Origin: Heterodontus francisci
Lineage: Eukaryota
NCBI RefSeq assembly: GCF_036365525.1
Contig: NC_090399.1
Coordinates: forward strand, 32,706,430-32,770,429
DNA: 64,000 bases
Direction: 5' to 3'
Shown here: positions 4,231 to 58,945 of the stretch, one piece after another
Layout of the letters: each line of letters opens with the position of its first letter
Numbering within the stretch: position 1 is the stretch's first letter
The notes under the pieces: model-generated
The model's database searches: none
Told to the model about the DNA's origin: nothing
What the model saw: only the letters and a program-made list of their open reading frames with translations
Made by a program: the position numbers and the translations under genes

Positions 4231-4406
4231 GGGGAGAATACACAGGACAGCTGGAGGGACAACATCGGGAGAACACACAGGACAGCTGGAGGGTCAACAT
4301 TGGGAGAACATACAGGACAGCTGGAGGGAAAACATCGGGAGAACACACAGGACAGCTGGAGGGACAACATCGGGAGAACACATAGGACAGCTGGAGGGAC
4401 AACATC
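4231..4406. repeat. 35-bp minisatellite, about 5 copies
   Basis: AGGACAGCTGG recurs at 4244, 4279, 4314, 4349 and 4384. Confidence 0.9.
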
Positions 4407-22032: not shown

Positions 22033-24380
22033 ATCTTTAACAAAAATATCATTTGATAAAGAGTAATGAAAAGAACAACTTATTTCTTCTTCTTTCCCAC
22101 ATCCTTTCAATTAACCTATCTGACTTCTTTCTATGTCTGTCCATTTCCATTAGCTTGACTTTGCTCTCCCAACATCTCAGACTGTTGATCCTGAACTTTG
22201 ACTTTCAAGACCAACTCCATTTAATGGTTGTGAATGTGACATTGATTGATTAGTCTTAGTCAATGACCCTGACTCACTTTGCTCTACCGGTGGATTCTGT
22301 GATACCGGCAAACTCTCAGTTTCTTTGTGACTTTCTCTTTCATTCTGACTTTCACTTGGGACTGTAGGAATTTGGACTATAGGAGGTTTCTCATGCTCTT
22401 CCTTTGTCAGATTACCCCTTTCAAGCAAATGATCTGCATGGCACTGACATAGTCTCTCTCCAACCTTCACTACATATATGAATACACCTAGTCTTTTTAC
22501 AACAACTCCAAAACATGTTTCTCCTTAGCACCTCAGTGGTTTTTCACAGTGACCTTCTGACCAGCCCAGAACTCTCTAAGTTTTATGTCTCGAGTATCAC
22601 GACTCATCTTCACTCTGTCTTCCTTTTCTCTTATTTTTCTGTGGACGTCTGGCTTAAGCAAACTAAACCTCGTTCTAGGAGAATGTTTAAACACTAACTC
22701 ATAAGGTGAGGAACCTGTTGTAGTTTGTGGGATTATTCTGTAAGAGAACAGAAAATTGTCTTGCCTGTGTCAAAGAGAAACATGGGACTTAGCAAATATT
22801 TCTGCAAAGACCTCTTCACAATTTGTACACTTCTTTCTGCAGCACCATTTGATGCTGGGTGATATGGTGATATTAGAGTGTGATCGACTCCATTCTTACT
22901 CAGAAATATTTCAAACTATTCTGACATAAACTGTGGACCATTATCTGACACCAACACCTCTGGCAACCCATAAATTGCAAACAAACTTCTCAAAACCTCA
23001 GTAGTTTTGGTACTTGTGGTATTGGGGATGGACTCGACATTAATCCACTTGCTATAGCTATCGACCAAAACAAAATACTCTTTCCCTTCCACTTCAAAGA
23101 AATCGACATGTACTGTTCCCATGGTTTCTTGTGTTTGACCATGGAATGAAAGGAACCTTGTTTGGATCATTTCTCATTCTGAGACACACTTCACAACCTT
23201 TCACCAACTCTTCAATATCTCAATCTACCTTTGGAGATTAAAAATAGCTTCTTGCTACTGTTTTCATACGGACTATCCCTGTGTGCTTTTGAAGTTCCTC
23301 TAACAATCTCTCTGAACCTTGGCAGAATAATGACTCTTAAACCCCATAGGAGACAGCCTTGATCGACACGCTGTTCATTTCTATGTGTGAAATACTCCTG
23401 CAATTTCTCATGATCACACTCTTTAGACCAATCATTCATGACATAATTGAGCACTTTGCTGAGCACAACATCCTTGTGAGATTCTTCACTAATTTCTCTG
23501 GCAGACACTGCCATAGTGTTGCAAAATGTCGGCTTTACATTGTCCTTTATCCTGATCTCGGCCTTGTGATGTCTAATTTTATCATTTGATCCTCCTTTCT
23601 CAAAGATTATTTTGTGCTCTCTTAGCACTTCCTCAATGTTAGACATACTCTGACTGATCCCAACTGTAAACACAGTTTAACTGTATTTTCTTAAGCCAAT
23701 TCCTTCCCATCAGGGAGACTTTGTTCCCTCCTTCTACCACCAATGGTAAGTAATAGAATGCATCATCGTATTCACCCGACACTAACTTCACCTCCCACTG
23801 GAATCCTGTTATTGGAATAACTAGTCCGTTTCACACCAGTTTTGCGTAAGGGAATGTGACTTAGGGACTTCTTGTACTCGCTTCCGAGATAACAGACACT
23901 GCTGCAGCTGTATCAACGATGAAAGTAAGTTGTGAATCTCCAACCTTCATTTTTAATGTGGGTGCTGGAATTCTATCTTCAGCCCTTTTACTCTCATCTT
24001 CCATGTGCTGTTTTTCTTGCTCTCTGACGGAGTACAACTCTTTATCCTCCTGCTCGATAACATCAACTTCTGTTTCCATATCCATCATATGTGCATTCGA
24101 GGACTTCCAGGCTCCTGAACTAGCTTTAGATCAACCACCACCTCGACCTGGTGAATTGCTGCAACCTGAAGCATTTCCGTGACCTGGAACATTACTGTTT
24201 CCTCTACTCCTGTATGTCATCTGGATATGACCGACTTTCCCACAGGGAATGCACTCTGACTGGAAATGGGGGCATTTAGATGGCTGGTAATTACCATGAC
24301 AACAGTAGTATCTAAATTTCTGAATCTGAGTTTGCAAACTTGGCTGCCATGGCCTGGTTCCCACTGAAAACCAATGGACA
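22033..24380 (-). mobile_element. Second copy of the internally deleted Gypsy element, inverted
   Basis: CIPCGKVGH, FIVDTAAAVSVI, YFVLVDSYSKW..GLPEVLVSDNGPQF; shares the RT/RNase H deletion with 15705-21925. Confidence 0.88.
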
Positions 24381-24469
24381 TAAGAACATAAGAAATGGGA
24401 GCAGGAGTAGGCCATATTTATATATATATAGGCCGAATGGCCTACTCCTGCTTCCATTTCTTATGTTCT

Positions 24470-24500
<31 letters not shown>
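24381..24500. repeat. Two head-to-head CR1 tails forming a ~35-bp-arm palindrome, with (TA)n
   Basis: TAAGAACATAAGAAATGGGAGCAGGAGTAGGCCAT and its near reverse complement at 24437-24471. Confidence 0.85.
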
Positions 24501-29319: not shown

Positions 29320-29643
29320 TTTTTAAATTTTTTTTTTAGAGATACCGCACTGAAACAGGCCCTTCGGCCCACAGAGTCTGTGCCAACCATCAACCACCCA
29401 TTTATACTAATCCTACACTAATTCCATACTCCTACCACATCCCCACCTGTCCCTATATTTTCCTACCACCTATCTATACTAGGGGCAATTTATAATGGCC
29501 AATTTACCTATTAACCTGAAAGTCTTTGGCATGTGGGAGGAAACCGGAGCACCCGGAGGAAACCCACGCAGGCACAGGGAGAACTTGCAAACTCTACACA
29601 GGCAGTACCCAGAATTGAACCCGGGTCGCTGGAGCTGTGAGGT
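29320..29643 (-). mobile_element. V-SINE (HE1-like), 5'-truncated
   Basis: V-domain TGTGTAGAGTTTGCAAGTTCTCCCTGTG..GGGTTTCCTCCGGGTGCTCCGGTTTCCTCCCA, B box and CR1-like tail. Confidence 0.88.
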
Positions 29644-29879: not shown

Positions 29880-31002
29880 GAAACCCAGCAGACCCAGCAC
29901 AGACCCAAAAAAACCGAACAAATCCACTCCCCAAACTGCAGCAAAACCCATGAACCCATAAGACCGCCCAAACACCAGCAAAACCCATCAGATCCCCACA
30001 AACACCAGCAGAAAAACCCATCAAACCCTCTCCCCAAACATCAGAAAACTCATCAGACACCATGAGCAGCAGCAAAACGCAACAAACCCACTCCCCAAAT
30101 ACCAGCAAAACCTATTAGACCCAGTTTCCAAACACAAGCAAAACACATCAGACTGTAGGATTGAGTTTATTTTATGATGGTATAGTATATTTCCATCTTC
30201 ACTGTCTGCGGCGCATTATAGTTTTATCCTTGTAGGGCAAAATCACAAATGCAGCAGTCCGCTCACAGGCAGAGCTCCTAAGTGTGTTGCACTAATCAAA
30301 CAGAGGAGGCTTCGGTGGACCAGACACATCCACAGGATGGAAGACATTCATATAGCCAATGACCTTCTGTATGGTGATGTAGCTCACTCCAGATGACCAG
30401 TGGGGCATCAAATCTCCACTTCAAAGATGCTTACAAGCGTGACATGAAGGCCCTTAATATCGACCTGGGAGTCACTAGCTGGTGAAAGAGGGAAATGGCG
30501 ACACATCCTGTGGAATAGTGTGCACTACCACGACGACCAGTTGCTACAGCAGGTTGGCAACATGCGCCAAAATCAAAAACTACAACTCACAGCGTCACTT
30601 GGCAGTTTCACGTGCAGGACTTGTAGCAGAACCTGCCTCTCAAGGATTAGCCTTCACAGCCATCAGCAAAGGTGCACCAAGAGAAGACACCCCACCGACA
30701 TGGATTGTTTGCTGTGTGTCCACCAACTTTCATCGATGGAAGAATGCCAACCAGCCAGTACTGTTAGAACTTACTTGTCATATCCTTAAGTAAATCTGAT
30801 AAAAGCAAAACCCATCAGACCTACAAACACCAGCAAAACCCATCAGACCCACTCCCCAAACAGCAAAACCCATCAGACCCACTCCCCAAACAGCAAAACC
30901 CATCAGACCCACTCCCCAAACAGCAAAACACATCAGACCTACAAAACATCAGTAAAACCCATCAGACCTACTCCCAAAACACCAGCAAAACTGATCAGAC
31001 CC
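29880..31002. repeat. Degenerate ~30-bp tandem repeat (CAGCAAAACCCATCAGACCCACTCCCCAAA), resuming at 34640-35010 and 37920-38000
   Basis: Same motif in four blocks separated by TE insertions. Confidence 0.85.
30265..30760 (+). mobile_element. RTE LINE 3' fragment
   Basis: DLLYGDVA, FKDAYKRDMKAL, FTCRTCSRTCLSRISLHSHQQRC. Confidence 0.8.
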
Positions 31003-31054
31003 ATCTGGTTCACTAATTTCCTTTAGGGAAAGAAATCTGCCGTCTTTACCTGGT

Positions 31055-31394
31055 TTAGTTTAGTGATACAGCACTGAAACAGGCCCTTCGGCCCACTGAG
31101 TCTGTGCTGACCATCAACCACACATTGATACTAATCCTACACTAATCCCATATTCCTACCACATCCCCACCTGTACCTATATTTCCCTACCACCTACCTC
31201 TACTAGGGGCAATTTATAATGGCCAATTTACCTACCAACCTGCAAGTCTTTTGGCTGTGGGAGGAAACCGGAGCACCCGGAGGAAACCCACGCAGACACA
31301 GGGAGAACTTGCAAACTCCACACAGGCAGTACCCAGAATTGAACCCGGGTCGCTGGAGCTGTGAGGCTGCGGTGCTAACCACTGCGCCACTGTG
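31055..31394 (-). mobile_element. V-SINE (HE1-like), full length
   Basis: A box TGGCGCAGTGG, B box GGTTCAATTC, V-domain; TSD CTGGT. Confidence 0.92.
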
Positions 31395-33895
31395 CTGGTC
31401 TGGCTTACATGTGACTCCAGACCCACAGCATTGTGGCTGACTCTTAAAATGTCCTCTGAAATGCCTAGCAAGCCATTCAGTTGTACTTAACCACTAAAAA
31501 GTTGATCAGGAATGAAACCGGACGGACCACCGAGCATTGACCTTGGCACCGTAAACAACAGCGGCAAACCCAGCCATGTCGACCCTGCAAAGTCCTCCTT
31601 ACTAACATCTGGGGGCTTGTGCCAAAGTTGGGAGAGCTGTCCCACAGACAAGTCAAGCAACAGCCTGACATAGTCATACTCACGGAATCATACCATACAA
31701 TGTCCCAGACACGACCATCACCATCTCTGGTTATGCCCTGTCCCATGGCTGGACAGACCCAGCAGAGGTGGCGGAACAGTGGTACACAGTAGGGAGGGAG
31801 TTGCCCTGGGAGTCTTCAACATCGACTCTGGACCCCATGAAATCTCATGGCATCAGGTCAAACATGGGCATGGAAACCTCCTGCTGATTACCACTTACCA
31901 ATCTAACTCAGCTGATGCATCAGTATTCCTCCATGTTGGACACCACTTGGAGGCAGCAAGGGCGCAGAATGTACTCTGGGTGAGGTGCATCAATGTCCAT
32001 CACCAAGAGTGGCTCAGTAACACCACTATTGACCTAGCTGACCCAGTCCTAAAGGACATAGCTGCAAGACTTGGTCTGCAGCAGGTGGTGAGGGAACCAA
32101 CAAGAGAGAAAAACATACTTGACCTCATCCTCAGTAATCTGCCTGCCACAGATGCAACTGTCCATGAGAGTATTGGTAGGAGTGACCACCGCACAGTCCT
32201 TGTGGAGACAAAGTGCCGACTTCACATTGAGGATCCCCTCCATTGGGTTTTGTGGCACTACCACTGTGCTAAATGGGATAGATTTCGAATAGATCTAGCA
32301 ATGCAAAACTGGGCATCCATGAGGTGCTGTGGATCATCTGCAGCAGCAGAATTGTACTCAATCACAATCTGTAACCTCATGGCCCTGCATATTCCCCACT
32401 CTACCATTACCATCAAGCCAGGGGATCAACCCTGGTTCAATAAAGAGTGTAGGAGGGCATGCCAGGTGCAACACCAGGCATACCTCAAAATGAGGTGTCA
32501 ACTCGGTGAAGCTGCAACCCAGGGCTACTTGCGTGTCAAACAACATAAGCAGCATGCGATAAACAGAGCTAAGTGATCCCACAACCAACAGATCAGATCT
32601 AAGCTCTGCAGTCCTGCCACATCCAGTCAAAAATGGTGGTGGACAATTAAATTATTAACAGGAGGAGGTGGCTCCACAAATATCCCCATCCTCGATGATG
32701 GGAGAGTCCAGCACAACAGTGCAAAGTTAAGGCTGAAGCATTTGCAACAATCTTCAGCCAGAAGTGCCGAGTTGATGATCCATCTCGGCCTCCTCCTGAA
32801 GTTCCCAGCGATCCAGATGCCAGTCTTCAGCCAATTCTATTCACTCCGCGTGATATCAAGAAACAACTGGATACTGCAAAGACTATGGGCCCTGACAACA
32901 TTCCGGCAATAGTACTGAAGATTTGTGCTCCAGACCTTGCCGTGCCCCTAGCCAAGCTGTTCCAGTACAGCTGCAACACTGGCATCTACTCGGCAATGTG
33001 GAAAATTGCCCAGGTATGTCCTGAACACAAAAAAAAGGGGACAAATCCGACCTGGCCAATTACCATCCCATCAGGCTATTCTCGATGATCAGTAAAGTGA
33101 TGGAAGGTGTCATCAACAGTGCTATCAAGCGGCACTTGCTTAGCAATAATCTGCTCAGTGATGCTCAGTTTGGGTTCCACCAGGGCCAGTCAGCTCCTGA
33201 CCTCATACAGCCTTGGTTCAAACATGGACAAAAGAGCTGAACTCAAGAAGTGAGGTGAGAGATACGACCCTTCAGATCAATGCAGCATTTGACCGAGTAT
33301 GGCATCAATGAACCCCAGCAAAACTGGAGTCAATGGGAGTCAGGGGGAAATCTCTCCGCTGGGTGGAACCATACCTAGCGCAAAGGAAGATGGCTGTGAT
33401 GGTTGGAAGTCAATCATCGCAGTTCCAGGACATCATTGCAGGAATTCCTCAGAGTAGTGTACTAGGCCCAACCATCTTCAGCTGCTTCATCAATGACCTT
33501 CCTTCAATCATAAAGGTCAGAAGTGGGGATGTTCGCTGATGATTGCACAATGTTCAGCACCATTCGTGACTCCTCAGATACTGAAGCAGTCCGTGTAGAA
33601 ATGCAGCAAGACCTGGACAATATCCAGGCTTGGGCTGATAAGTGACAAGTAACATTTGCGCCACACAAGTGCCAGGCAATGACCATCTCCAACAAGAGAG
33701 AATCTAACCATCTCCCCTTGACATTCAACAGCATTACAATCACTGAATCCTCCACTATCAACATCCTGGGGGTTACCGTTGACCAGAAACTGAACTGGAA
33801 TAGCCATATAAATACCATGGTTCAGCCATGCGCGGAGGCTAGGAATCCTGCGCTGAGTAACTCACCTCCTGACTCCTCAAAGCCTGTCCACCATC

Positions 33896-34108
33896 TTTTT
33901 TTTTTTAGAACATTACAGCGCAGTACAGGCCCTTCGGCCCTCAATGTTGCGCCGACCTGTGAAACCATCTGACCTACACTATTCCATTTTCATCCATATG
34001 TCTATCCAATGACCACTTAAATGCCCTTAAAGTTGGCGAATCTACTACTGCTGCAGGCAGGGCGTTCCACGCCCCTACTACTCTCTGAGTAAAGAAACTA
34101 CCTCTCAC
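33896..34108 (-). mobile_element. Short CR1 3' end
   Basis: FFTQRVVGAWNALP; TSD CATCT. Confidence 0.85.
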
Positions 34109-35009
34109 ATCTACAAGGCACAAGTTAGGAATATGATGGAATACTCTCCACTTGCCTGGATGGATGCAGCTCCAACAACAGTCAAGAAGCTCGACACCAT
34201 CCAGGACTAAGCAGCCCGCTTGATTGGCACCCCATCCACAAACATTCACTCCCTTCACCACTGACACACAGTGGCAGCAGTGTGTACCATCTACAAGATG
34301 CACTGCAGCAATGCACCAAGGCTAGTCAGGCAGCGCCTTCCAAACCTGCAACCTCAACCACCTAGAATGACAAGGGCTGCAGATTCATGGGAACACCACC
34401 ACCTGCACGTTCCCCTCCAAGCCACACATCAACCTGACTTGACACTAAATCACCATTCCTTCACTGTCGCTGGGTCAAAATTCTGGAACTCCCTTCCGAA
34501 CAGCACTGTGGGTGTACCTACCCCACATGGACTGCAATGGTTCATGAAGGCAGCTCACCACCACCTTCTTAAGGACAATGAGGGATGGGAAATAAGTGCT
34601 GGCCTGGCCAGTGATACCAACATCCCATGAAATGAATAAATCAACCCAATCCCCAAACACCAGCAAAACCCATCAGACGCCGAAACTTCAGCAACACCAA
34701 TCAGACCCACTCTACAAAAACCAGCAAAACCCCGTAGATCCCCAAACATCAGCAAAATACATCAAACCCAGTCCCAAACACCAACAAAACCCATCAGACC
34801 AAGCCCGAACTCCAATAAAACCCATCAGACCCACTCCCCAAACACCAGCAAAACCCATTAAACCCACTCCCGAATTACCAGCAAAACCCATTAAACCCAC
34901 TCCCGAATTACCAGCAAAATCCATCAGACCCACTCCTCAAAACACACAAAACCCACCAGATCCACTCCCCAAATGCCACCAAAACCCAAAAACCCACTTG
35001 TCCGAACCT

Positions 35010-37920
35010 ACAAATTAAGAGTAGGCCACTCAGCCCCTCGAGCCTGCTCCGCCATTCAAAAAGATCATGGCTGATCTGATTGTAACCGCAATTCCACATT
35101 CCCGCCTAGCCCAAATAACCTTTCACCCCCTTGTTTATCCAGAATCTATCTAGCTCCGCCTTAAAAAATATACAAAAACTCTGCTTCCACCACCTTTTGA
35201 GGAAGAGAGTTCCAAAGACTCACGATTGAGAAAAGAAATTCTCCTCATCTCTGTCTTCAATGGGTGATCACTTATTTTCAAACAGTGACCCCTAGCTCTA
35301 GATTCTCCCACAAGGGGTAACATCCTTTCCATATCCACCCTGTCAAGACCCCTCAGGATCTTATATGTTTCAATCAGGTCACCTCTTACTCTTCTAAATT
35401 CCAGCGGATACAAGCCTAGCCTGTCCAACATTTCCTCATAAGAAAACCTGCCCATTCCAGGTGTTAGTCTAGTAAACTTTCTCTGAACTGCTTCCAAAGC
35501 AGTTACCTCCTTCCTGAAATAAGGAGACCAATACTGTACACAGTATTCCAGATGTGGTCTCACCAATATAGCTGAAGCATAACCTCCCTACATTTTTTGT
35601 TCAATTCCCTTTGCAATAATTGATAACATTCGATTAGCTTTCCCATTTACTTGCTGTACCTGCATACTAACATTTTGTGATTCATGTACTAGACACCCAG
35701 ATTCTTCTGCATCTCAGAGCTCCGCAATCTCTCACCATTTAGATAATATGCTTCTTTTGTATTCTTCCTGCCAAAGTGGACAATTTCACATTTTCCCACA
35801 TTATACTCCATTTGCCAGATCTTTGCCCACTCACTTAACCTATCTATATCCCTTCGTAGCCTCCTTATGTCCTCTTCACAACTTACTTTCCTACCTATCT
35901 TTGAGTCATCAGCAAATTTAGCAACCATATATTTGCTCCCTTTATCCAAGTCATTTATATAAGTTGAAAAAAGTTGAGGCCCCATCACTGATCCCTGTGG
36001 CACACCACTCGTTACATCTTGTCAACCAGAAAATGACCCATTTATGCCTACTCTCTGTTCCCTGTTAGCTAGCCAATCTTTTTTTTAAGAGATACAGCAC
36101 TGAAACAGGCCCTTCGGCCCACCGAGTCTGTGCCGAACATCAACCACCCATTTATACCAATCCTACACTAATCCCATATTCCTACCAAACATCCCCACTT
36201 GTCCCTATATTTCCCTACCACCTACCTATACTAGTGACAATTTATAATGGCCAATTTACCTATCAACCTGCAAGTCTTTTTGGCTTGTGGGAGGAAACCA
36301 GAGCACCCGGAGAAAACCCACGCAGACACAGGGAGAACTTGCAAACTCCACACAGGCAGTACCCGGAATCGAACCCGGGTCCCTGGAGCTGTGAGGCTGC
36401 GGTGCTAACCACTGCGCCACTGTGCCACTATAAGATTTAATCTTATATTAATGCCAACATGTTACCCCCTACACCAAGAGCTTTTACTTTCCACATCGAA
36501 TAAATTGGTTAAGAAAGATTTCCCTTTCGCAGAACCATGTTGACTCTGCTTGATTACCTTGACTTTTTCTAAATGCCCTGCTATATTGTCTTTAATTATA
36601 GCTTCTAACATTTTCCCCCAAGACAGATGTTAAACTAACTGGCCTATAGTTTCCTGCTTTCTGTCTCCCTCCATTTTTAAATAAAGGAATTACATTGGCT
36701 ATTTTCCAATCTACTGGAACCTTCCCTGAATCTAGGGAATTCTGTAAAATCAAAACCAATGTCTCTGCTGTCACACGAGCCACTTCTTTTAACACCCTAG
36801 GATGAAGGCCATCAGGACCTGGGGACTTGTCAGCTCGCAGCTCCAACAATTTTCTCAGTACTACTTCACTGGTGATTGTAATTCCCTCCCTTCCATTTCC
36901 TGATTTACAGCTATTTCTGGGATGTTACTTGTATCCTCTATGGTTAAGTCCGATGCAAAATATCTGTTCAATTCATCTGCCATCTCCTTATTTTCCCTTA
37001 TTAATTCCCCAGACTCACTTTCTATAGGACCAACGCTCACTTTGTTAACTCTTTTCTTTTTCATTATCTATAGAAACTCTGACCATCTGTTTTTTATATT
37101 ACCTGCCAGCTTTCTCTCGTACTCTAATTTTTCCCTCCTTATTAATCTTTTAGTTATTTTTCCTGCTTTTTTATATTCTGTCCAATCTTCTTACCTGCCA
37201 CTCATCTTTGAGCAATTATAAGCTTTTTCTTTACGTTTGATACTATCTTTAACATTTTTAGTTAACCATGGATAGTGGGTCCTCCCCTTGGCATTTTTCT
37301 TTCTCATTGGAATGTATCTATTCTGCATATTCTGAAATATACCCTTAAATGTCTGCACTGCATCTCTATTGATCTATCCCTTAACCTACTTTGCCAGTTC
37401 ACTTTTGCTAGCTCGGCTTTCATTCCCTCATAATTGCCCTTATTTAAATGTAAAATACTAGACTTGGAGCTGTCCTTCTCGCCCTAAAACTGAATATAAA
37501 ATTCAATCATATGATGATTGCTGCTGCCTAGGGACGCCTTCACTATGAGATCATTAATTAATCCCATCCCATTGCACAATACCAAGTCTAATGAGCCTGC
37601 TCTCTGATTGGCTCTAGACATGCTGTTCTAAGAAACTATCCTGAAAACATTCTCTGAACTCCTCATCAAGGCTACCTTTGCCCATCTGCTTTTTCCAACC
37701 TATATGTAGATTAAAATCCCCCATGATTATCGCCGTACCTTTCTGACAAGCACCCATTATTTATTTCTTTATACCCCATCCTACCTGCGGTAACTGTTCG
37801 GGGGCCTGTACACCATTCCCACCAGTGACTTCTGGCCTCTATCATTTCTCATCTTGACCCAAACTGCTTCTACATCCTGGTTTCCTGAACTTAGGTCATC
37901 CCTTTTTATTAGCACTATCC
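35010..37920 (-). mobile_element. CR1 LINE ORF2 fragments (APE to RT to tail)
   Basis: [42 protein letters not shown]. Confidence 0.92.
36079..36427 (-). mobile_element. V-SINE (HE1-like) nested in CR1
   Basis: Nearly identical to 31055-31394. Confidence 0.92.
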
Positions 37921-39476: not shown

Positions 39477-39811
39477 CTGTTGGAGAGTGAGAGAATGAGA
39501 GAGAGAATCAGAGATATACCAGGATACAGTGTGTCCTTGTAGTACTATAATATCCCAAGACACACTAGGTCCAGTCGTACTGTAATATCCCGGGATATTA
39601 ATCTGTTAATTGTGAATTAATTTTTAAATTATATGCAGCGGAGGGTGTTAATTGGGGATTTACTTGAACACTTATAAGCAGACACTTACTGAGACTGGTA
39701 AAAGTTTTTGACTGACGAGCTACATGTTTGTAATCCTTTTACTCTGCACAAACAGAGTAAAAATAGGCTCCAGCATCATCCTTCCATAACAAGCTTTCTG
39801 GAGGTTAGCAC

Positions 39812-40385
39812 AGGATACACCGGGTCCTGGCATACTGCAATATCCCGGGTTACACTGGATCCTTTTGAACTGTAATATCCAGGGATACAACTGGTCCTGT
39901 TATACTGTAATATTTCAGCATACCCTGGGTCCTGCCGTACTGTAATATTCCAGGATACACCGGGTTCTGCCGTACTGTAATATTTCAGGATACACCGGGT
40001 TTGTCGTACTGTAATATTCCAGGATACACCGGGTCCTGCCGTACTGTAATATTCTAGGATACACTGGGTCCTGCCGTACTGTAATATTCTAGGATACACC
40101 GGGTCCTGCCGTACTGTAATATTCCAGGATACACCGGGTCCTGCCATACTGTAATATTCTAGGATACACCGGGTCCTGCCATACTGTAATATTCTAGGAT
40201 ACACCGGGTCCTGCCGTACTGTAATATTCCAGGATACACCGGGTCCTGCCGTACTGTAATATTCCAGGGTACACTGGGTCCTGTCATACTGTAATATTCC
40301 AGGATACACTGGGCCCTGTCGTACTGTAATATTCCAGGATACAGCGGGTCCTGCCATACTGTCATATCTTGGGATACACCGGCTC
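39812..40385. repeat. 35-bp minisatellite, about 16 copies
   Basis: Unit GTACTGTAATATTCCAGGATACACCGGGTCCTGCC; degenerate copies at 39510-39600. Confidence 0.95.
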
Positions 40386-40802: not shown

Positions 40803-41203
40803 TTTTTTTTTCCGTTCATGGGATGCGGCCGTCGCTGGCTAGGACAGCATTTATTGCCCATCCCTAATTCCCTTGAACTGAGTGGCTTGCTCGGCCATTT
40901 CAGAGAGCATTTAAGAGTCAACCACACTGCTGTAGATCTGGAGTCACATGCAGGCCAGACCAGGTAAGAACGGCAGATTTCCTTCCCTAAAGGATATTTG
41001 TGAACCAAATGGGTTTTGACGACAATTAACAATGGTTTAATGATCACCATCAGACTAGCTTTTTTTAAAATTTGAGATTTATTAATTGAATTCAAATTCC
41101 ACCATCTGTCATGGTGTGATTCAAAACCCATGTCTCAGAGCACTAGCCTAGGCCTCTGGATTACTAGCCCAGTGACATTAACACTACACCATAGCCTCCG
41201 CCC
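40803..41203 (-). mobile_element. tRNA-derived SINE equal to head plus tail of the LINE at 46093-49387
   Basis: Degenerate A and B boxes; colinear with 46093-46413, then jumps to 49311-49387; absent from the 3' LTR. Confidence 0.92.
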
Positions 41204-44355: not shown

Positions 44356-44999
44356 ATTTCCTGGAATAATCCCAGATTGAGTGCTGACTAGATCCCAGGC
44401 TCATCCGATTAAACAGAGCGAGATTCAGCTGTGTGGAGAACAATCCGGATGTTTATTTGGCTGAAACTTTTTTCAAGGGTTTGGAGGGGGATATTGGTGG
44501 AAAAGGCTCCAACGTTAGCAATGGTGCATTGTTTAGCAGATTGTCTTTGATTGAGGCACAACAGGCAGACCCTGACTTCAGAAGTTTGTCTCAAACAGTG
44601 TGTTCTGAGGCAGAAGCTGAAAAGGTGCCTGAGTTTTGCTGTGTCAAGAATAAAATTCTAATGAGAAAGTGGAAAGCTGTCCAGAGGTCTGTTCATGAGA
44701 ATTGGGCTATCGTTCATCAGATTGTTGTTCAAACTTTGAGAATTGCCCATGAGATCCCAGTGGCAGGTCATGTGGGTATTCGAAAAACTCAGGCCAGGAT
44801 AAGGTGGCATTTTTATTGAGCAGATTTGCACAAAGATGTGGTTGAATTCTGCAGAACTTGCCATACATGTCAGGTAGTTGGGAAGCCACAGCCTTCATTT
44901 AAACCAGCCCCATAGATACCAACACCTGCTTGAGATGAACCGTTTAGTCAGTTCTTGTTGACTGTGGCAGACCTTAACCCTCAACCTTAACCCACTTCA

Positions 45000-47900
45000 C
45001 AGAAAAAACAGCCATGGACAACTAAAGAGATGAGGGAAAGCATAAAACAAAAAGAAATGGCTCACAAAAACGCAAACGCAGCACAGATCCGGCTGAATGG
45101 GATTGATACAAAAACCAGCAAAGGGTCACAAAATAGCTTATAAGAGCTACTAAAAGAGATTATGAAAGGAAACTTGCAAGGGACATCAAAATCAATAAGA
45201 AGAAATTTTATAGTTACATAAAGGGAAAATGGGTGGTCACAAGCAATATAGGCCCACTAAAAGATGAAAATGGAGATATTGTCATTGATAATGGGGAAAT
45301 GGCAGATATGTTGAACAATTACTTTGCCTCAGTATTTACAGTTCAAAAGGAGGATGACTTGCCGGAAGTCCCGAAAAAATTAATAGCCGATAGGGGACAG
45401 GGACTTAATACAATTAACGTAAGTAAATCATCAGTAACAAGAAAATTAATGGAACTAACGAGTGAGAAATCCCCAGGACCTGACTGTTTCCATCCCAGGG
45501 TGTTAAAGGAAGTAGGCAACCACATTGTAGATGCCCTAACGATAGTCTTTCAGAGTTCCCTAGATTCAGGAGTGCTCCCTCTGGATTGGAAAGTTGCACA
45601 TGTCACTCCACTTTTTAAGAAGGGTGAAAGGGGGAACCAAGGAAATTACAGACCAGTTATCCTGACATCTGTGGTGGGCAAGTTGCTGGTGTCTATAATC
45701 AAGGATAGGGTGACTGAACACCGAGAAAAATTTCAGTTAATCAGGGACAGCCAGCCTGGATTCATGATAGGAAGATCATGCCTGACAAATCTCATTGAAT
45801 TTTTTGAGGAGGTGACTAAGGTAGTGGACAGGGAGTGTCTATGGATGCCATTTATATGGACTTCCAGAAGGCATTTGATAAAGTTCCACATAAGAGACTG
45901 TTAACTAAGGTAGAAGCCCATGGAGTTGAGGGCAAATTATTGACATGGTTAGGAGGTTGGTTGAATGGTAGGCGACAGAGAGTGGGGATAATGGCTAAGT
46001 ACTCTAATTGGCAGGATGTAACGAGTGGTGTCCCGCAGGGACCTGTGTTGGGGCCTCAATTATTCACATTATTCATTAATGACTTGGATGATGGGTAGGC
46101 AGTGGCGTAGTGGTGTTATCACTGGACTAGTAACCCAGAGACCCAGGGTATTTCTCTGGGGACTTGGGTTCGAGTCCCACCACAGCAGAAGGTGGAATTT
46201 GAATTTAATTAATAAATCTGGAATTAAAAGCTAGTCTAATGATGGCCATGAAACCATTGTCGATTGTTGTGAAAACCCATCTTGTTCACTAATTTCCTTT
46301 AGGGAAGGAAATCTGCTGTCCTTACCTGGTCTGGCCGACATGTGACTCCAGACCCACAGCAATGTGGTTAACTCTTACATGCCCTCTGAAATAGCCTAGC
46401 AAGCCACTCAGTTGTATCTAACCGCGACAAAGTCTATAAAAAGGAATGAAACCGGACGGACCACCCAGCATCTACCTAGGCACTAGAAACAACAGTGGCA
46501 AACCCAGCCCTGTCGACCCTGCAAAGTCCTCCTTACTAACATCTGGGGGCTTGTGCCAAAGTTGGGAGAGCTGTCCCACAGACTAGTCAAGCAACAGCCT
46601 GACATAGTCATACTCATGGAATCATTCCTTTCAGACAATGTCCCAGACACTGGCATCACCATCCCCGGGTATGTCCTGTCCCACCGGCAGGACAGACCCA
46701 ACAGAGGTGGTGGCACAGTGATATACAGTAGAGAGGGAGTTGCCCTGGGAGTCCTCAACATCGATTCCAGACCCCATGAAGTCTCATGGCATCAGGTCAA
46801 ACATGGGCAAAGTAACCTCTTACTGATTACCACCTACCGCCCTCCCTCAGCTGATGACTCAGTACTCCTCCATGTTGAACACCACTTGCAGGAAGCACTG
46901 AGGGTGGCAAGGGTACAAAATGTACTCTGGGTGGGGGACTTCAATGTCCATCACCAAGAGTGGCTCGGTAGCACCACTACTGACCGAGCTGGCCGAGTCC
47001 TAAACGACATAGCTGCTCGACTGGGTCTGCAGCAGGTGGTGGGGAAACCAACACGAGGGAAAAACATACTTAACCTCATCCTTACCAATCTGCCTGCCGC
47101 AGATGCTTCTGTCCATGACAGTATTGGTAGGAGTGACCACCGCACAGTACCTGTGGAGACGAAGTCCCGCCTTCACGTTGAGGATACCCTCCATCGTGTT
47201 GTGTGGCACTATCACCGTGCTGAATGGGATAGATTTCGAACAGATCTAGCAATGCAAAACTGAGCATCCATGAGGCGCTGTGGGCCATCAGCAGCAGCAG
47301 AATTGTAGTCAACCACAATCTGTAACCTCAAAGCCTGGCATATCCCCCACTCTACCATTACCATCAAGCCAGGAGACCAACCCTGGTTCAATGAAGAGTG
47401 CAGGAGGGCATGCCAGGAGCAGCACCAGGCATACCTCAAAATGAGGTGTCAACCTGGTGAAGCTACAACCCAGGACTACTTGCATGCCAAGCTGCGTAAG
47501 CAGCATGCGATAGACAGAGCTAAGCGATCCCATAACCAACGGATCAGATCCAAGCTCTGCAGTCCTGCCACATCCAGCCGTGAATGGTGGTGGACAATTA
47601 AACAATTAACTGGAGGAAGTGGCTCCACAAATATCCCCATCCTCAATGATGGGGGAGCCCAGCACATCAATGCGAAAGATAAGGCTGAAGCATTTGCAAC
47701 AATCTTCAGCCAGAAGTGACGAGTTGATGATCCATCTCGGCCTCCTCCTGAAGTCCCCAGCATCACAGATGCCAGACTTCAGCCAATTCGATTCACGCCC
47801 CGTGATATCAAGAAGCGACTGAAGGCACTGGATACTGCAAAAGTTATGGGCCCTGAGAATATTCCGGCAATAGTACTGAAGACCTGTACTCCAGAACTTG

Positions 47901-50090
47901 CCATGCCCCCAGCCAAGCTGTTCCAGTACAGCTGCAACACTGGCATCTACCCTGCAATGTGGAAAATTGCCCAGGTATGTCCTGTACACAAAAAGCAGGA
48001 CAAGTCCAACCCGGCCAACTACCGCCCCATCAGCCTACTCTCAATCATCAGTAAAGTGATGGAATGTGTCATCAACAGTGCCATCAAGCGGCACTTGCTT
48101 AGCAATAACCTGCTCAGTGATGCTCAGTTTGGGTTCCGCCAGAGCCACTCAGCTCCTGACCTCATTACAGCCTTGGTTCAAACATGGACAAAAGAGCTGA
48201 ACTCAAGAGGTGAGGTGAGAATGGCTGCCCTTGAGATCAAGGCAGCATTTGACCGAGTATGGCATCAAGGAGCCCTAGCAAAACTGAGGTCAATGGGAAT
48301 CAGGGGGAAATCTCTCCGCCGGCTGGAGTCATACCTAGCGCAAAGGAAGATGGCTGTGGTTGTTGGAGTTCAATCATCTGAGCTCCAGGACATCACTGCA
48401 GGAGTTCCTCAGGGTAGTGTCCTCGGCCCAACCATCTTCAGCTGCTTCATCAATGACCTTCCTTCAATCATGAAGTCAGAAGTGGGGATGTTTGCGGATG
48501 ATTGCACAATGTTCAGCACCATTCGTGACTCCTCAGATACTGAAGCAGTCCGTGTAGAAATGCAGCAAGACCTGGACAATATCCAGGCTTGGGCTGATAA
48601 GTGGCAAGTAACATTCGCGCCACACAAGTGCCAGGCAATGACCATCTCCAACAAGAGAGAATCTAACCATCTCCCCTTGACATTCAAAGACATTACCATC
48701 GCTGAATCCCACTATCAACATCCTAGGGGCTACCATTGACCGAAAACTGAACTGGAGTAGCCATATAAATACCGTGGCTACAAGAGCAGGTCAGAGGCTC
48801 GGAATCCTGAGGCGAGTAACTCACCTCCTGACTCCCCAAAGCCTGTCCACCATCTACAAGGCACAAGTCAGGAGTGTGATGGAATACTCTCCACTTGCCT
48901 GGATGGGTGCAGCTCCAACAACACTCAAGAAGCTCAACACCATCCAGGACAAAGCAGCCTGCTTGATTGGCACCCCATCTACAAATATTCACTCCCTCCA
49001 CCTCAACGCACAGTAGCAGCAATGTGTACCATCTACAAGATGCACTGCAGCAATGCACCAAGGCTCCTTAGACAGCACCTTCCAAACCTGCGACCTCTAC
49101 CAACTAGAAGGACAAGGGCAGCAAATACATGGGAACACCACCACCTGCAAGTTCCCCTCCAAGTCACACACCATCCTGACTTGGAACTATATCGCCGTTC
49201 CTTCACTGTTGCTGGGTCAAAATCCTGGAACTCCCTTCCTAAAAGCACTGTGGGTCTACCTACCCCAAATGAACTATAGCGGTTCAAGCAGGCAGCTCAC
49301 CACCACCTTCTCAAGGGCAATTAGGGATGGACAATAAATGCTGGCCTGGCCAGTGACGCCCCCATCCCATGAATGAATAAAAAAAAAGTCCAAATTTGCT
49401 GATGATACAAAGTTAGACAGAATTGTAGACAGTCTAGATGATAGCATAAAATTGCAAAGAGATATTGACAGACTAGGTGAGTGGGCAAAACTGTGGCAGA
49501 TGGATTTCGATGCGGGCAAGTACGAGGTTATCCATTTTGGACCAAAGAAGGATAGAGCAGGGTACTTTCTAAATTGGATGAGGTTAATTACAGTGGATGT
49601 CCAAAGAGACTTGGGGTTCAGGTGCATAGATCTTTGCTTAACAAAAAACTATCTCAGATTTAAAATTAGCAACTGTTCCAGCTTCAACTGCTGTTTGTGG
49701 GAGAGAGTTCCAAACCTCTACCACCCTTTGCATGAAGAAGTGCTTCCTAACCTCTCTCCTGAATGGTCTGGTCCTAATTTTTAGACTGTGCCCCCTAGTT
49801 TTAGAATCTCCAACCCATGGAAATAGTTTATCTTTATCTAGCCTGTCTTTTCCTGTTAATATCTTGAAGACTTCAATCAGATCACTCCTTAACCTTCTAA
49901 ATTCTAGCGAAAACAGGCCTAATTTGTGTAATCCCTCCTCGTAACGTAACGCAAAGATATTAAGGGATATGGGCCAAAGGTAGGTATATGGAGTTAGGCC
50001 ATGGATCAGCCATGATTTAATTGAATGGCAGGACAGGCTCGAGGGGCTGAATGGCCTACTCCTGTTCCTAACGTCCTATGTCCTATGTTC
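45000..50090 (+). mobile_element. CR1 ORF2 fragment in the Gypsy integrase, itself interrupted at 46093-49387 and with an inverted piece at ~49630-49945
   Basis: KSPGPDCFHPRVLKE..FINDLDD, resuming SKFADDTK at 49388; CCTATGT tail. Confidence 0.9.
46093..49387 (+). mobile_element. Full-length single-ORF (APE-RT) CR1-group LINE with a tRNA-derived Pol III 5' end
   Basis: A box TGGCGTAGTGG 46103-46113, B box GGTTCGAGTCC 46167-46177; APE motifs (TNIWGL, WVGDFN, SDH); RT motifs (PQGSVLGP, FADD); tail ATGAATGAATAAAA; few stops or frameshifts. Confidence 0.93.
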
Positions 50091-53387: not shown

Positions 53388-54611
53388 ACCTCACTCGCCG
53401 ACACTCAGCCCCTCCCTCCCCCCCACTCGCCGATATTCGGTCCCTCTCTCCCCACCCCCCCCTCACTCGCCGACACTCAGTCCCTCCCTCCCCCCCCTCC
53501 CTCACTCGCCGACACTCGGTCCCTCCCCCCCCTCCCTCACTCGCCGACACTCGGTCCCTCCCTCCGCCCCCTCCCTCACTCGCCGACACTCGGTCCCTCC
53601 CCCCCTCCCTCACTCGCCAACACAGTCCCTCTCTCCCCCCCCACCTCACTCGCCAACACTCAGTCCCTCCCCCCCTCCCTCACTCGTCGACACTCAGTCC
53701 CTCCCTCCCCCCTTCCCTCACTCGTCGACACTCAGTCCCTCCCTCCCCCCCCTCCCTCACACGCCGACACTCGGCCCCTCCCTCCCCCCCACTCGCCGAG
53801 AGTCGGTCCCTCTCTCCCCCCACCCCCCCATTCGCTGACACAGTCCCTCCCTCCGCCTCCTCCCTCACTCGCCGACACTCGCCGACACTCGGTCCCTCCC
53901 TCCGCCCCCTCCCTCACTCGCCGACACTCGGTCCCTCCGCCCCCTCCCTCACTCGCCGACACTCGGTCCCTCCCCCCTCCCTCACTCGACGACACTCAGT
54001 CCCTCCCTCCCCCCTCACTCGCCGACACTCGGCCCCTCCCTCCCCCCCTCACTCAGCGACACTCGGTCCCTCCCCCCCTCCCTCACTCGCCGACACTCGG
54101 TCCCTCCCTCCCCCCTCACTCGCCGACACTCGGTCCCTCCCCCCCTCCCTCACTCGCCGACACTCGGTCCCACCCTCCCCCCCTCCCTCACTCGCCGACA
54201 CTCGGCCCCTCCCTCCCCCCCACTCGCCGAGAGTCGGTCCCTCTCTCCCCCCCCCCCCTCACTCGCCGACACAGTCCCTCCCTCCGCCCCCTCCCTCACT
54301 CGCCGACACTCGGTCCCTCCCCCCCCTCCCTCACTCGCCGACACTCGGTCCCTCCCCCCCCTCCCTCACTCGCCGACACTCGGTCCCTCTCTCCCTCCCC
54401 TCACTCGCCGACACAGTCCCTCCCTCCGCCCCCTCCCTCACTCGCCGACACTCGGTCCCTCCCTCCCCCCCTCACTCGCCGACACTCAGTCCCTCCCTCA
54501 CTCGCCGACACTCAGTCCCTCCCCCCCTCCCTCACTCGCCGACACTCAGTCCCTCCCTCCCCCCCTCACTCGCCGACATTCAGTCCCTCCCTCCCTCCCC
54601 CCCTCACTCAC
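53388..54611. repeat. C-rich ~33-38-bp minisatellite filling the alpha2-alpha3 intron
   Basis: Core CCTCACTCGCCGACACTCGGTCCCT, roughly 35 copies. Confidence 0.95.
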
Positions 54612-54884
54612 CGACTCTCAGTTCTTGCTGTCCGTACTGCAGGTATTTCCTCAGCCACTCAATACACTCCTCCTCCAGGTAATTCTTCCACTGGTGGGCT
54701 GTCACCATGTCCTGGTTCCACCTGTTTTTGATGCTCTCCGCCCATTGGACCGGTGTCACCCACACCATGTGATCCCTGTCAAAGCTCATGAGGTCTCGTC
54801 CATCCCATCCCCTCTGGACAAACCCAGTGCTGGTCCCATCATCCCGCAAGTCACAGCCGGTCAGCATCTGGTACATGTGGGTCC
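54612..54884 (-). CDS. MHC class I alpha2 exon (273 nt)
   Basis: TGACAG|(G)THMYQMLTGCDL..GWDGRDLMSFD..IKNRWN..YLEEECIEWLRKYLQYG..LRV G|GTGAGT; both Cys present. Confidence 0.95.
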
Positions 54885-54959: not shown

Positions 54960-57895
54960 TGAAATAAAACAAAGAAATGCTGGAAATACTCAGCAGGTCT
55001 GGCAGCATCTGTGCAGAGAGAAGCAGAGTTAACGTTTCAGGTCAGTGACCTTTCATCAGAACTGGCAAATATTAGAAATGTAAAAGGTTTCAAGCAAGTA
55101 AAGTGGGGGTTGGGGCAAGAGATAACAAAAGAGAAAGTAATGATCGGACAAGGTCACAGAATAAATGGCCAGAAGGTCATGGAGGAAAGGCAATCGGTAT
55201 GTTAATGGTGTGCTGAAAGACAAAGTGTTAGTACAGAGAGGGTGTGAATAGACTGTAAAGCACAAAGCACTCCAAGCACAAACATTAAAAAACATTTTAA
55301 AGAAACAAAACAGTGGGTAAGTACAGTGGAAACAAACTAAACAAATTGAAAAACCAAAAATTAAATAACCAAATAAAAAAGGAAAAAGAAAAAAGAAAAA
55401 AATAGAAAAAATAACTAAGCATAAAAAGCTCGGGGGCATGCTCACGGACTGAGCGGAGGTGTTCCGCAAAGCGGTCACCCAATGTTCGTTTGGTCTCCCC
55501 AGTGTAGGGAGACCACATTGTGAGCAGCGAATACAGTATACTACATTGAAAGTACAACAAGTAAATCGCTACTTCACCTGAAAGGAGTGTTTGGGGACTG
55601 GGATAGTGAGGAGAGAGGAGGTAAATGGGCAGGTATTACACCTCCTGCGATTGCAGGGGAAGGTGCCATGGGACGGGGACGAGGTGGTGGGGGTAATGGA
55701 GGAGTGGACCACGGTGTCACAGAGGGAACGATCCCTTCGGAACGCTGACAGGGGAAGGGAGGGGAAGATGCGTTTGGTAGTGGCATCATGTCGGATGTGG
55801 CTGAAATGGCGGAGGCTGATGGGGTGGAAATTGAGGACAAGGGGAACCCTGTCACGGTTCTGGGAGGGAGGGGATGGGGTGAGGGTAGAGGTGCGGGAAA
55901 TGGGACGGACACGGTTGAGGGCTCTGTCAACCACAGTGGGGGGTAATCCTCGGTTGAGGAAAAAGGAAGACATATCAGAAGTGCTGTCATGGAAGGTAGC
56001 ATCATCAGAGCAGATGCGTCCGAGATGGAGAAACTGGGAGAATGGAATGGAGTCCTTACAGGAGGCAGGGTGTGAAGAAGTGTAGTCAAGGTAGCTGTGG
56101 GAGTCGGTGGGCTTATAATGAATATTCGTAGACAGCCTAGCCCCAGAGATGGAGATAGAGAAGTCGAAGAAGGGAAGTGTCAGAGATGGATCATGTAAAG
56201 GTGAGAGAAGGGTGGAAATTAGACGCAAAGTTAATGAAGTTTTCTAGTTCCGGGTGGGAACAGGAAACGGCACCGATACAGTCATCAATGTACTGGAAAA
56301 AGAGTTGGGGGAGGGGGGCCTGAGTAGGACAGGAACAAGGAATGTTCGACATATCCCACAAAAATTCAGGCATAACTAGGACCCATGTGAGAAACCCATA
56401 GCAACACCTTTTACTTGAAGGAAGTGAGAGGAGTTGAAGGAGAAGTTGTTCAATGTGAGAACGAGTTCAGCCAGGTGGAGGAGGGTGGTGGTGGATGGGG
56501 ACTGGTTGGGCCTCTGTTCAAGGAAGAAGCGGAGAGCCCTCAAACCATCCTGGTGGGGGATGGAGGTGTAGAGCGATTGGACACCCATAGTGAAGAGGTG
56601 GTGAGGGCCAGGAAACTGGGGTCAGAAGAGTTATGAATGTTGGTGGGAAGAGACTACAGGAGAAAAGATAGAGTCAAGATAGGAAGAAATAAGTTCTGCG
56701 GGGCAGGAGCAGGCTGACACAAAGGGTCTGCCAGGACAGTCCTGTTTGTGGATTTTGGGAAGGAGGTAGAAGCGAGCGGTCCAGGGTTGTGGGACTATGA
56801 GGTTGGAAGCTGTAGAGGGAAGATCTTCAGAGGAGATGAGGTCAATGACAGTCCTGTGGACAGTAGCCTGATGTTCGGTGGTGGGGTCATATTCCAGGAG
56901 GAGGTAGGAAGAAGTGTCTGAGAGTTGGCGCTGAGCCCCAGCAAGGTAGATGTTGGTATGCCATACAACAACAGCACCACCTCTTATCTGCAGGTTTGAT
57001 GACAATCTCGGGGTTAGACCTGAGAGAACAGAGTGTGGCAAGTTCAGAGGGGGGCAGGTTAGAGTGAGTGAGGGGGGCAGAAAAATTGAGATGGCCGATG
57101 TCTCGCTGACAGTTTTCAATGAAAAGATCAAGAAAGGGTAAGAGACCAGAAGGAGGGATACAGGTAGAGGGGGACTGCTGGAGGTGGGTGAATGGGTCTG
57201 CTGATCAGGGGGAGGGCACCTAGTCAAAGAAGTGACGGAGTCAAAGGCGACGGAAGAAGTGCTCAACATCATGCCGAGCACGGAATTCATTGAGGGTGGG
57301 GGCGTAAGGGGAGAAAACTGAGACCTTTGCTGAGTACAAAATGTTCAGCGTCAGAGAGGGGGAGGTCAGAGGGTATCGTGAATACACGGCAAGGAGTCAG
57401 ATCAGAAGGGTTGGGTTAAGAGGTAAGTGAAGGGGAAGAAGGATCTGGAGGGGCATTAGTCCCCATCAGCTGCTGGAGTCTATGTTCCTTGACACCTGAA
57501 AGGAAGAAAAAAAGTTTTTTGTTAATGTGTTGGATGAGACAAAGGATGAAATGAAACTGCAGAGTCGAACAGCTCCGAGATAAGAGGCAGTGCTGCTGGA
57601 GAGAGAGGTCCAGTGTGTGCATGTGGTGGCGCATAGCACGGAGTGTGGATCTTAGGATGCAGCAAGAACAGCAGTCCGAGGAACATTGTATTTCTCGGAG
57701 ATATCTGTAATCCTGGGTGGATTCAAAACACGAAGGATGAATCTTCAGTTGGAAACCACGTGGAATAAGTTGGAGCCGGAGATAGTCACTGAGGAAGGAG
57801 ATGTGGCTGTGAAAATAGGTTTGGTGGATACTTTATCAAACACCAGGAGGGAAATAGAAAGCAATGAAAGTGAACAAGGTAAAAGAGACAAATTA
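54960..57895 (-). mobile_element. Penelope-like element (RT, GIY-YIG endonuclease, pLTR), decayed
   Basis: FYLLPKIHK, SLYTSIP, QVKGVAMG, QYIDDC, HYKPTDSHSYL, YTGETKRTLGDRFAEH. Confidence 0.92.
55027..55063 (-). ncRNA. Minimal type I hammerhead ribozyme with intact core
   Basis: AGTT-CTGATGA-A-AGGTC(ACT)GACCT-GAAAC-GTT-AACT; stems I and II pair; stem III is palindromic with no loop. Confidence 0.75.
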
Positions 57896-58580
57896 GCCAA
57901 TGAGACCCAGTCCCACTGGGAGATCCCGCCCACCATACACAGCCAATCAGACCTAGTCCCACTGGGAGGCCCCGCCCACCATACGCAGCCAATCAGACCC
58001 AGTCCCACTGGGAGATCCCGCCCACCATACACAGCTAATCAGACCCAGTCCCACTGGGAGATCCCGCCCACCATACACAGCCAATCAGACCCAGTCCCAC
58101 TGGGAGATCCCGCCCACCATACACAGCCAATCAGACCCAGTCCCACTGGGAGGCCCCGCCCACCATACACAGCTAATCAGACCCAGTCCCACTGGGAGAT
58201 CCCGCCCACCGTACACAGCCAATCAGACCCAGTCCCACTGGGAGATCCCGCCCACCATACACAGCCAATCAGACCCAGTCCCACTGGGAGATCCCGCCCA
58301 CCATACACAGCCAATCAGACCCAGTCCCACTGGGAGGCCCCGCCCACCATACACAGCTAATCAGACCCAGTCCCACTGGGAGATCCCGCCCACCGTACAC
58401 AGCCAATCAGACCTAGTCCCACTGGGAGATCCCGCCCACCATACACAGCCAATCAGACCCAGTCCCACTGGGAGGCCCCGCCCAACATACGCAGCCAATC
58501 AGACCCAGTCCCACTGGGAGATCCCGCCCACCATACACAGCCAATCAGACCCAGTCCCACTGGGAGACTCCACCCACACT
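57895..58580. repeat. 46-bp minisatellite, about 15 copies, with a remnant at 54886-54959
   Basis: Unit CAGACCCAGTCCCACTGGGAGATCCCGCCCACCATACACAGCCAAT; period 46 (57942, 57988). Confidence 0.95.
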
Positions 58581-58850: not shown

Positions 58851-58945
58851 ACAGCTCACCACCACCTTCTCAAGGGCAATTAGGGATGGGCAATAAATGC
58901 TGGCCTAGCCTGTGACGCCCACATCTTCTGAACAAATAAAAAAAA
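58851..58945 (+). mobile_element. Extreme 3' end of the tRNA-headed LINE family
   Basis: Matches 49293-49387, including the LINE-only CAGCTCACCACCACCTTC. Confidence 0.85.

Follow-up and report, generated by a model that had tools for sequence, protein, structure and literature searches.

Probable origin of tRNA-headed SINEs by internal deletion of a tRNA-headed Zenon LINE in a shark genome

In the textbook scheme, LINEs are transcribed by Pol II and SINEs by Pol III, and a SINE is born when a small-RNA head is fused to the tail of a LINE. A short element in the 64,000-nt stretch of Heterodontus francisci DNA analysed here (the whole stretch is called the window) shares both its head and its tail with a LINE in the same window, which raises the question of how a SINE of this make-up comes about. 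It is 401 nt long, non-coding and a member of a multi-copy family of fixed structure, and consists of the first ~320 nt of the LINE joined to its last ~75 nt, the LINE itself being 3.3 kb long with a single ORF. The features of the elements are given in Table 1.

Table 1. Positions of the short element and of the Zenon-type LINE copies in the window.
Feature	Position	Strand	Remarks
Short element, S1 junction, head generation C	40803-41203	-	tRNA-like head, ~220-nt body, LINE 3′ tail and A-run; decayed copy
SINE part matching LINE 5′ end (46097-46413)	40876-41197	-	82%; B-box region damaged, TTTT at ~41126-41123
SINE part matching LINE 3′ end (49311-49387)	40803-40876	-	begins within last ORF codons (K-G-N-stop)
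Full-length tRNA-headed Zenon-type LINE, generation E, dead copy	46093-49387	+	in-frame stops; frameshifts near 48707 and 49002; sense strand without TTTT
tRNA-Thr(AGT)-like head, ~18-20 nt extra arm	46098-46188	+	ARAGORN; alignment to genomic tRNA-Thr genes
A box	46103-46113	+	in LINE head, read from sequence
B box	46167-46177	+	in LINE head, read from sequence
Conserved body (5′ UTR), common to LINE and all short forms	46189-46413	+	differs from printed Deu and UCON3 domains
LINE-specific linker	46414-46535	+	retained in part by long-tail short forms
AUG-started 46-codon short ORF, +1 frame	46446-46586	+	overlaps main ORF start
APE endonuclease domain (PF14529, PF03372)	46538-47149	+	Pfam
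Reverse transcriptase domain (PF00078)	47993-48652	+	Pfam; ORF ends with TAG 49322-49324
3′ tail common to LINE and SINE, A-run at end	49311-49387	+	sequence
Second LINE copy, 5′-truncated within body	30999-34640	+	body, linker and ORF still together
5′-truncated copy of Zenon-type LINE	15794-17281	-	window self-comparison match
3′-end fragment of Zenon-type LINE	58852-58945	+	match within window

An earlier note, made from the letters of the window alone, described the SINE as colinear with 46093-46413 and as continuing directly into TCAAGGG(C), the sequence of 49311-49387. Alignment within the window confirmed both points. Positions 40876-41197 (minus strand) match 46413-46097 of the LINE with 82.0% identity over 323 columns (E 6e-86), and 40876-40803 match the LINE tail at 83.7% over 86 columns, with no spacer after the head part; the C of CAAGGGC is absent in this copy. 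The tail part matches another LINE copy (L063) at 87.7% over 73 nt. At the junction, termed S1, a single T is common to both sides (..CACTCAGT, then T, then CAAGGG). Head and tail blocks abut in 27 of 30 sampled short-form loci, the exceptions being one without the head, one without the tail block and one with a shortened tail. The window SINE lies within another repeat, an empty paralogue of which is found at 52316/52318; no target-site duplication was found around the SINE, and ~12 nt of A-rich filler stand at its 5′ side. ARAGORN made no tRNA call on this copy, which is too decayed. The LINE copy at 46093 is a cousin of the SINE, not its parent, because the SINE head is of generation C, which is older than generation E, to which this LINE belongs.

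The LINE at 46093-49387 codes in a single, broken frame for an APE endonuclease and for a reverse transcriptase, and has no ORF1. It is inserted, with an 18-nt loss of target site, in a young CR1-type LINE (44992-46092 and 49389 onward) represented by 24 loci at ~94%, the majority frame of which has 1004 codons. The second LINE copy sits in a ~30-33 nt tandem repeat (30804-31003, 34639-34998); the repeat unit includes AAAACCCATC, the same letters at which this copy is 5′-truncated, making it likely that the truncation was guided by microhomology. The body of the second copy is interrupted at 31059-31395 by a SINE of an unrelated tRNA-type family, which we assume may be the shark V-SINE HE1. 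Other members of that family occur at 29329-29642, 36079-36425 and 63539-63614 (91-93% between copies), with an ARAGORN match at 36354-36426 (minus strand).

Two genomic tRNA-Thr(AGT) genes align with the head of the short element and of the LINE, apart from an insertion of ~20 nt (score 55.5, against a shuffle maximum of 42). ARAGORN called tRNA-Thr(agt) in two of seven short-form loci (L289, L130) and in two of five LINE loci, and Rfam gave only sub-threshold matches to the element (tRNA-Sec, E 1.1). With a single APE+RT ORF, no ORF1 and a poly-A tail (A-rich ends in full-length copies), the LINE shows features of Zenon. Consensuses of elasmobranch Zenon LINEs, of the CR1 group, were published by Stuart et al. 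2026 (PMC13343379), and in the accessible part of their Table S2 the head, body and linker match the rows CarCar, RhiTyp, ScyCan, SquAca (three) and HypSab, by motif search and by eye over the first ~400 nt of each row rather than by alignment. As far as those rows can be viewed, the published element is the same (3.2-3.3 kb, without ORF1, with a poly-A tail and the same head, body and linker); the head, the body and GTTGTA open the CarCar, RhiTyp, ScyCan, SquAca and HypSab rows, and the A and B boxes are kept in the sharks and the ray alike, with a variable extra arm. The hagfish and coelacanth rows start differently and have T runs in their visible stretch.

A quick RT tree, which held no labelled Zenon reference, placed the LINE apart from CR1 (35% RT identity) and grouped it with single-ORF invertebrate relatives (98 SH-aLRT). 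The nearest full proteins are single-ORF relatives of ~940 aa with 40-48% identity, some of them from amphioxus and brittle star. Exonised Zenon pieces, 74-85% identical, were found in proteins of Heterodontus and Heptranchias; one Heterodontus protein (P0122) covers body, linker and endonuclease and may not be independent of this genome. The database proteins P0121, P0122 and P0126 join parts of Zenon to host exons (an immunoglobulin-domain protein, a CWC25 homolog), through exonisation or a gene-model error. Distant RT-coding LINE fragments (L174:704-2377, L139:1731-2462, L134:3119-3736 and L005:319-846) show 25-34% identity to the Zenon ORF and are neither CR1-like nor Zenon by nucleotide search. 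Two other identities for the SINE were rejected. Compared by eye with the Deu alignment printed in the accessible supplement of PMC7245038, its body is unlike that of Deu SINEs (SacSINE1) beyond the short motif TGCCGTC, and motifs of the body are absent from the viewable part of that supplement; a by-eye comparison with the available Fig. S2 text gave no match to UCON3-domain SINEs.

The earlier note had allowed that the head might be linked to an ORF at only two loci. The linkage is real, genome-wide and common to sharks and rays. An exact 15-mer at the end of the body, used as an anchor, has 29,670 matches in the 6.0 Gb genome, and the junction of head to linker, which marks the LINE, has 14,444 exact matches. 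The S1 junction of the window SINE has 4,412 (exact 21-mer), so that the sharing of both head and tail, also claimed in that note, holds across the genome, and S2, a junction two bases longer than S1, has 2,485; the reversed control gave 0 for all three. Among 100 consecutive anchor sites (the first 100 of the 29,670, from one contig and including a few segmental duplicates), 52 were LINEs, 38 had a short tail, 7 a long tail and 3 were unclear. A 22-mer from the LINE 3′ end has 47,343 genome matches. Full-length copies, represented by the 30 best hits and so a selected rather than a random sample, are 3.24-3.31 kb long, differ by 2.2-3.6% from their majority sequence and have A-rich ends and no long duplications; 26 of the 30 have their start no more than 4 nt from the tRNA 5′ end. 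Contigs from four other organisms contain both the head-linker junction and the S1 joint, and the published consensuses represent five sharks and rays. A run labelled as RNA (X15) covers the stretch as well, but it consists of contigs and its RNA nature is a guess, so it was left out as a sign of expression. Among 268 head matches in 1.12 Mb, neither a different tail nor a different head recurred, and 80 metagenome LINE loci, which are mostly 24-41% distant and not close relatives, showed no head similarity.

Two routes to the SINE had been envisaged in the earlier note, internal deletion of a Pol III LINE or capture by a LINE of its own SINE as promoter, and the junctions bear on both. Long-tail forms, with 369 exact matches, exist besides S1 and S2; among 100 of them listed, 68 have one 42-nt span in common and 8 and 5 have two other junctions; further junctions beyond these sets occur among older short copies. 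Junctions therefore vary between families, yet thousands are identical, a pattern that differs from heterogeneous, sporadic deletion. The long-tail forms retain 12-40 nt of LINE-only linker, of the old type in old copies and of the young type in young ones, and S2 retains the first linker bases. When 169 near-complete heads were sorted by diagnostic sites into generations A-E, LINE heads fell in A, C, D and E (with one in B) and short forms in A-D, the sample of generation B comprising 12 short copies and 1 LINE. The majority heads of SLA-D and LINE-D show no differences, S1-C and LINE-C differ at four positions, as do S1-D and LINE-D, and S1-C and S1-D differ at 14. Divergence ages are similar within a generation (LINE-C 8.9%, S1-C 8.1%; LINE-D 4.4%, S1-D and SLA 2.7%). 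Resolution of the head tree is poor, 2 of its 98 branches reaching 95 or more. AU tests with 101 of the 169 heads (at most 9 per class and generation, <12% gaps) rejected placement of the LINE heads as one side (p 6.6e-5) and likewise of the S1 heads (p 1.3e-4). By phylogeny and age, the comparison through which the note had proposed to decide between its two routes, the short forms are thus closest to LINEs of their own generation, and separate clades are rejected.

On either side of the junction, S1-C and S1-D agree with the LINE of their own generation; the 37 S1 copies compared included no clear head/tail intermediate, and one of them (L006) is a mosaic. Since the short forms are multi-copy, differ in linker length and carry heads that track the LINE of the same age, their sequences indicate that they most likely arose repeatedly by internal deletion of the LINE. 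The deletion route of the earlier note is supported in this way, by a head fixed at thousands of loci and by discrete, multi-copy junctions that keep the linker of the same-age LINE generation. Capture is not needed for today's SINEs; it may still describe how the LINE first gained its head. The identical S1 junction in three head generations (B, C and D), with a microhomology of 1 nt, calls for a hot spot of deletion or, alternatively, for recombination that renewed an old SINE. Splicing was rejected as the source of the junctions, the removed parts not being GT-AG in S1, S2, S3 or SLA. Single-copy internal deletions are found elsewhere in the LINE (L040, L049, L054, L124, L148, L188 and L194), so deletion is frequent; amplified families were seen only from deletions that remove almost all of the ORF.

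Pol III stops at four or more Ts, and its usual products are far shorter than 3.3 kb. The LINE majority sequence of 30 copies contains no TTTT in 3,298 nt where 4.4 are expected (P = 0.012 under base composition), and 7 TTT against 21.9 expected, while the other runs (15 AAAA, 13 CCCC and 8 GGGG) are at expectation. Individually, 21 of the 30 full-length copies have no TTTT and nine have one. The majority sequence of the CR1-type control (24 loci of the same genome) has nine TTTT in 3,215 nt, and each of 22 metagenome LINE ORFs (picked from the 80 loci for long matches) has 6-44, including L206 of the same RT clade. Depletion holds in older generations, with 0.11-0.73 TTTT per kb in Zenon-family fragments against 2.7-4.8 in CR1-like fragments. 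Under nulls that keep the codons or dinucleotides of the element, zero TTTT is unremarkable (P 0.09, 0.09 and 0.20); these nulls, though, absorb the TT depletion (0.70) that is itself under test. The tRNA-type promoter together with the lack of any T4 run in 3.3 kb makes it likely, as far as sequence can tell, that Pol III copies the LINE from end to end.

The main frame is open for 975 codons in the LINE majority sequence, in which the endonuclease has no in-frame AUG ahead of it and Met first appears in this frame at codon 285, past that domain. An out-of-frame AUG at nt 354, present in 29 of 30 full-length copies and in the published rows and missing from the five oldest-type linkers, opens 46 codons. 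A conserved TTG at the end of the body was not accepted as the start codon because a TAA comes after the in-frame TTG in 8 of 79 copies, and also in the SquAca rows as far as these can be viewed. No canonical slippery heptamer occurs in nt 331-520. Linker indels are multiples of three in 12 of 26 length variants, a weak tendency. Compared with mononucleotide shuffles, folding gave z 0.0 for nt 100-330 (the body) and -3.7 for nt 1-360, and as the body alone folds no better than shuffles, there is no structural support for an IRES. Translation may start independently of a cap at a non-AUG codon, or by a shift out of the short ORF.

We consider it probable that the SINE arose by deletion of the middle of an elasmobranch Zenon LINE, 3.3 kb long, which bears its own tRNA-Thr-like head with A and B boxes and is itself likely transcribed end to end by Pol III. 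Thousands of loci, and the consensuses of five sharks and rays, show head, body, ORF and tail as a single unit. The Zenon of the elasmobranch ancestor would have acquired the tRNA head, because hagfish and coelacanth Zenon consensuses begin otherwise. The T4-free sense strand is what Pol III read-through would require, and the uncapped LINE RNA would then be translated without an in-frame AUG, via another start or a frameshift. Deletions that begin shortly after the body and leave the last 75-160 nt, a pattern present in several LINE generations, would each have yielded a ready-made SINE, since the promoter and the tail recognised by the RT are both kept, and this could be mobilised in trans by the LINE protein. 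The fuller picture, of an autonomous protein-coding vertebrate retrotransposon with a 3.3-kb Pol III RNA from its own tRNA-derived promoter, terminators purged since the shark-ray ancestor, translation without cap or in-frame AUG, and repeated one-step budding of SINEs, stands in our estimate at about an even chance.

The same anatomy and deletion origin might go together with transcription of the LINE by Pol II, from promoters in the body or the flanks, the head being a passenger or serving the short forms only. The absent T runs would then follow from low T content (20% of the sense strand), for which the codon-preserving nulls (P~0.09) leave room; however, depletion is confined to T runs, A, C and G runs being at expectation, and extends to older generations. 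The conserved AUG at nt 354 could suit cap-dependent scanning, but it is out of frame, its reading stops after 46 codons and the oldest-type linkers lack it. Lepidopteran Zenon and its short derivative Persaeus have no Pol III promoter, according to the accessible part of PMC6740152; against this, the A and B boxes persist across the sharks and a ray whose rows could be viewed while the extra arm varies, and full-length copies start at the tRNA 5′ end. We regard Pol II transcription as a possible but rather unlikely alternative.

Another order of events, which starts from a SINE already possessing this head, body and S-type junction, is less likely still. Zenon would then have taken over the 5′ part of that SINE as promoter, and later head and tail swaps by template switching would have kept the two alike. 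This order would fit with the same S1 junction in three generations, with generation B being seen almost only as short forms, and with the exchange of heads and tails between SINEs and LINEs documented in the accessible parts of PMC5786205 and PMC7245038. The long-tail forms cannot predate the LINE linker, however, as they hold 12-40 nt of it, of matching age, and S2 holds its first bases; the agreement of S1-C and S1-D with their LINE generation on both junction sides, and the lack of a SINE with the same head and another tail among the 268 head matches in 1.12 Mb, also speak against it. That the structures are one-off chimeras, formed by SINE insertion ahead of a LINE at these loci or by sporadic deletion, is hardly credible: the family does contain many nested insertions and sporadic deletions inside the element, but junctions of both kinds are found in thousands of identical copies and the same structure occurs in other species, so that the counts refute it.

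The preferred origin by internal deletion has a partial precedent. In the accessible text of Wang et al. 2019 (PMC6740152), Persaeus of Lepidoptera is a SIDE, a short derivative of the 5′ and 3′ ends of Zenon with several origins, active together with its LINE and without tRNA homology. Joining of the Zenon ends by internal deletion, several times over, is common to both systems; the shark product differs in being formally a tRNA SINE, since the LINE itself bears the head. The earlier note had called either route unusual; with Persaeus as a precedent, internal deletion is less unusual than first thought. Bov-tA, SINE2_Gav and SINE2-1_EC, built on bipartite RTE or Vingi LINEs (Kojima 2018, PMC5786205, in the part available), similarly contain both 5′ and 3′ LINE sequence; in that model the deletion comes first, the tRNA head is joined on later and the LINE is regarded as a Pol II element, whereas the shark head is on the autonomous LINE. 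SacSINE1 and other Deu SINEs (PMC5499810, in part) are likewise tRNA-headed SINEs of sharks, of similar length and with a CR1-group tail, but the body is unlike that of the printed Deu alignment except for TGCCGTC, and they were set apart by eye on the alignment in PMC7245038. Other shark or chordate SINEs are described in PMC5499810, PMC7245038, PMC4824008, PMC4494074 and PMC3747384, each of them available in part.

The main text of PMC13343379 contains no occurrence of tRNA, promoter, polymerase, non-autonomous or internal deletion, and the head, the loss of T runs and the derived SINEs found here are not described there for Zenon. A literature search that lay outside repeat databases (Repbase, Dfam, SINEBase) and subscription journals yielded no account of a Zenon with a tRNA head or of SINEs belonging to it. 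The LINE is thus an already published consensus, while in the searchable literature the tRNA head, the loss of T runs and the SINEs descended from the LINE appear to be undescribed; the SINE may already carry a library name, because the repeat databases were outside the search.

The family allows a route to SINE birth to be followed over several dated generations within one genome. As the LINE bears the head itself, one deletion yields a finished SINE, and the LINE would, if this reading is true, be its own SINE factory, budding complete tRNA SINEs again and again. Should Pol III make the full RNA, a protein of ~100 kDa would in nature be encoded by a Pol III transcript, and the body of 220 nt, which all derivatives retain, would be a candidate for cap-independent ribosome recruitment. 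R2 is likewise an autonomous non-LTR element without Pol II capping or a conserved start AUG; it is co-transcribed with rRNA by Pol I and is site-specific, whereas the shark LINE has a putative internal tRNA-type promoter of its own and is dispersed.

Other repeats of the window include minisatellites at 39811-40382 (35 nt period), 53389-54619 (34), 57895-58567 (46) and 4232-4406 (35), and near-palindromes of ~95 nt at 18726-18822 and 24380-24472.
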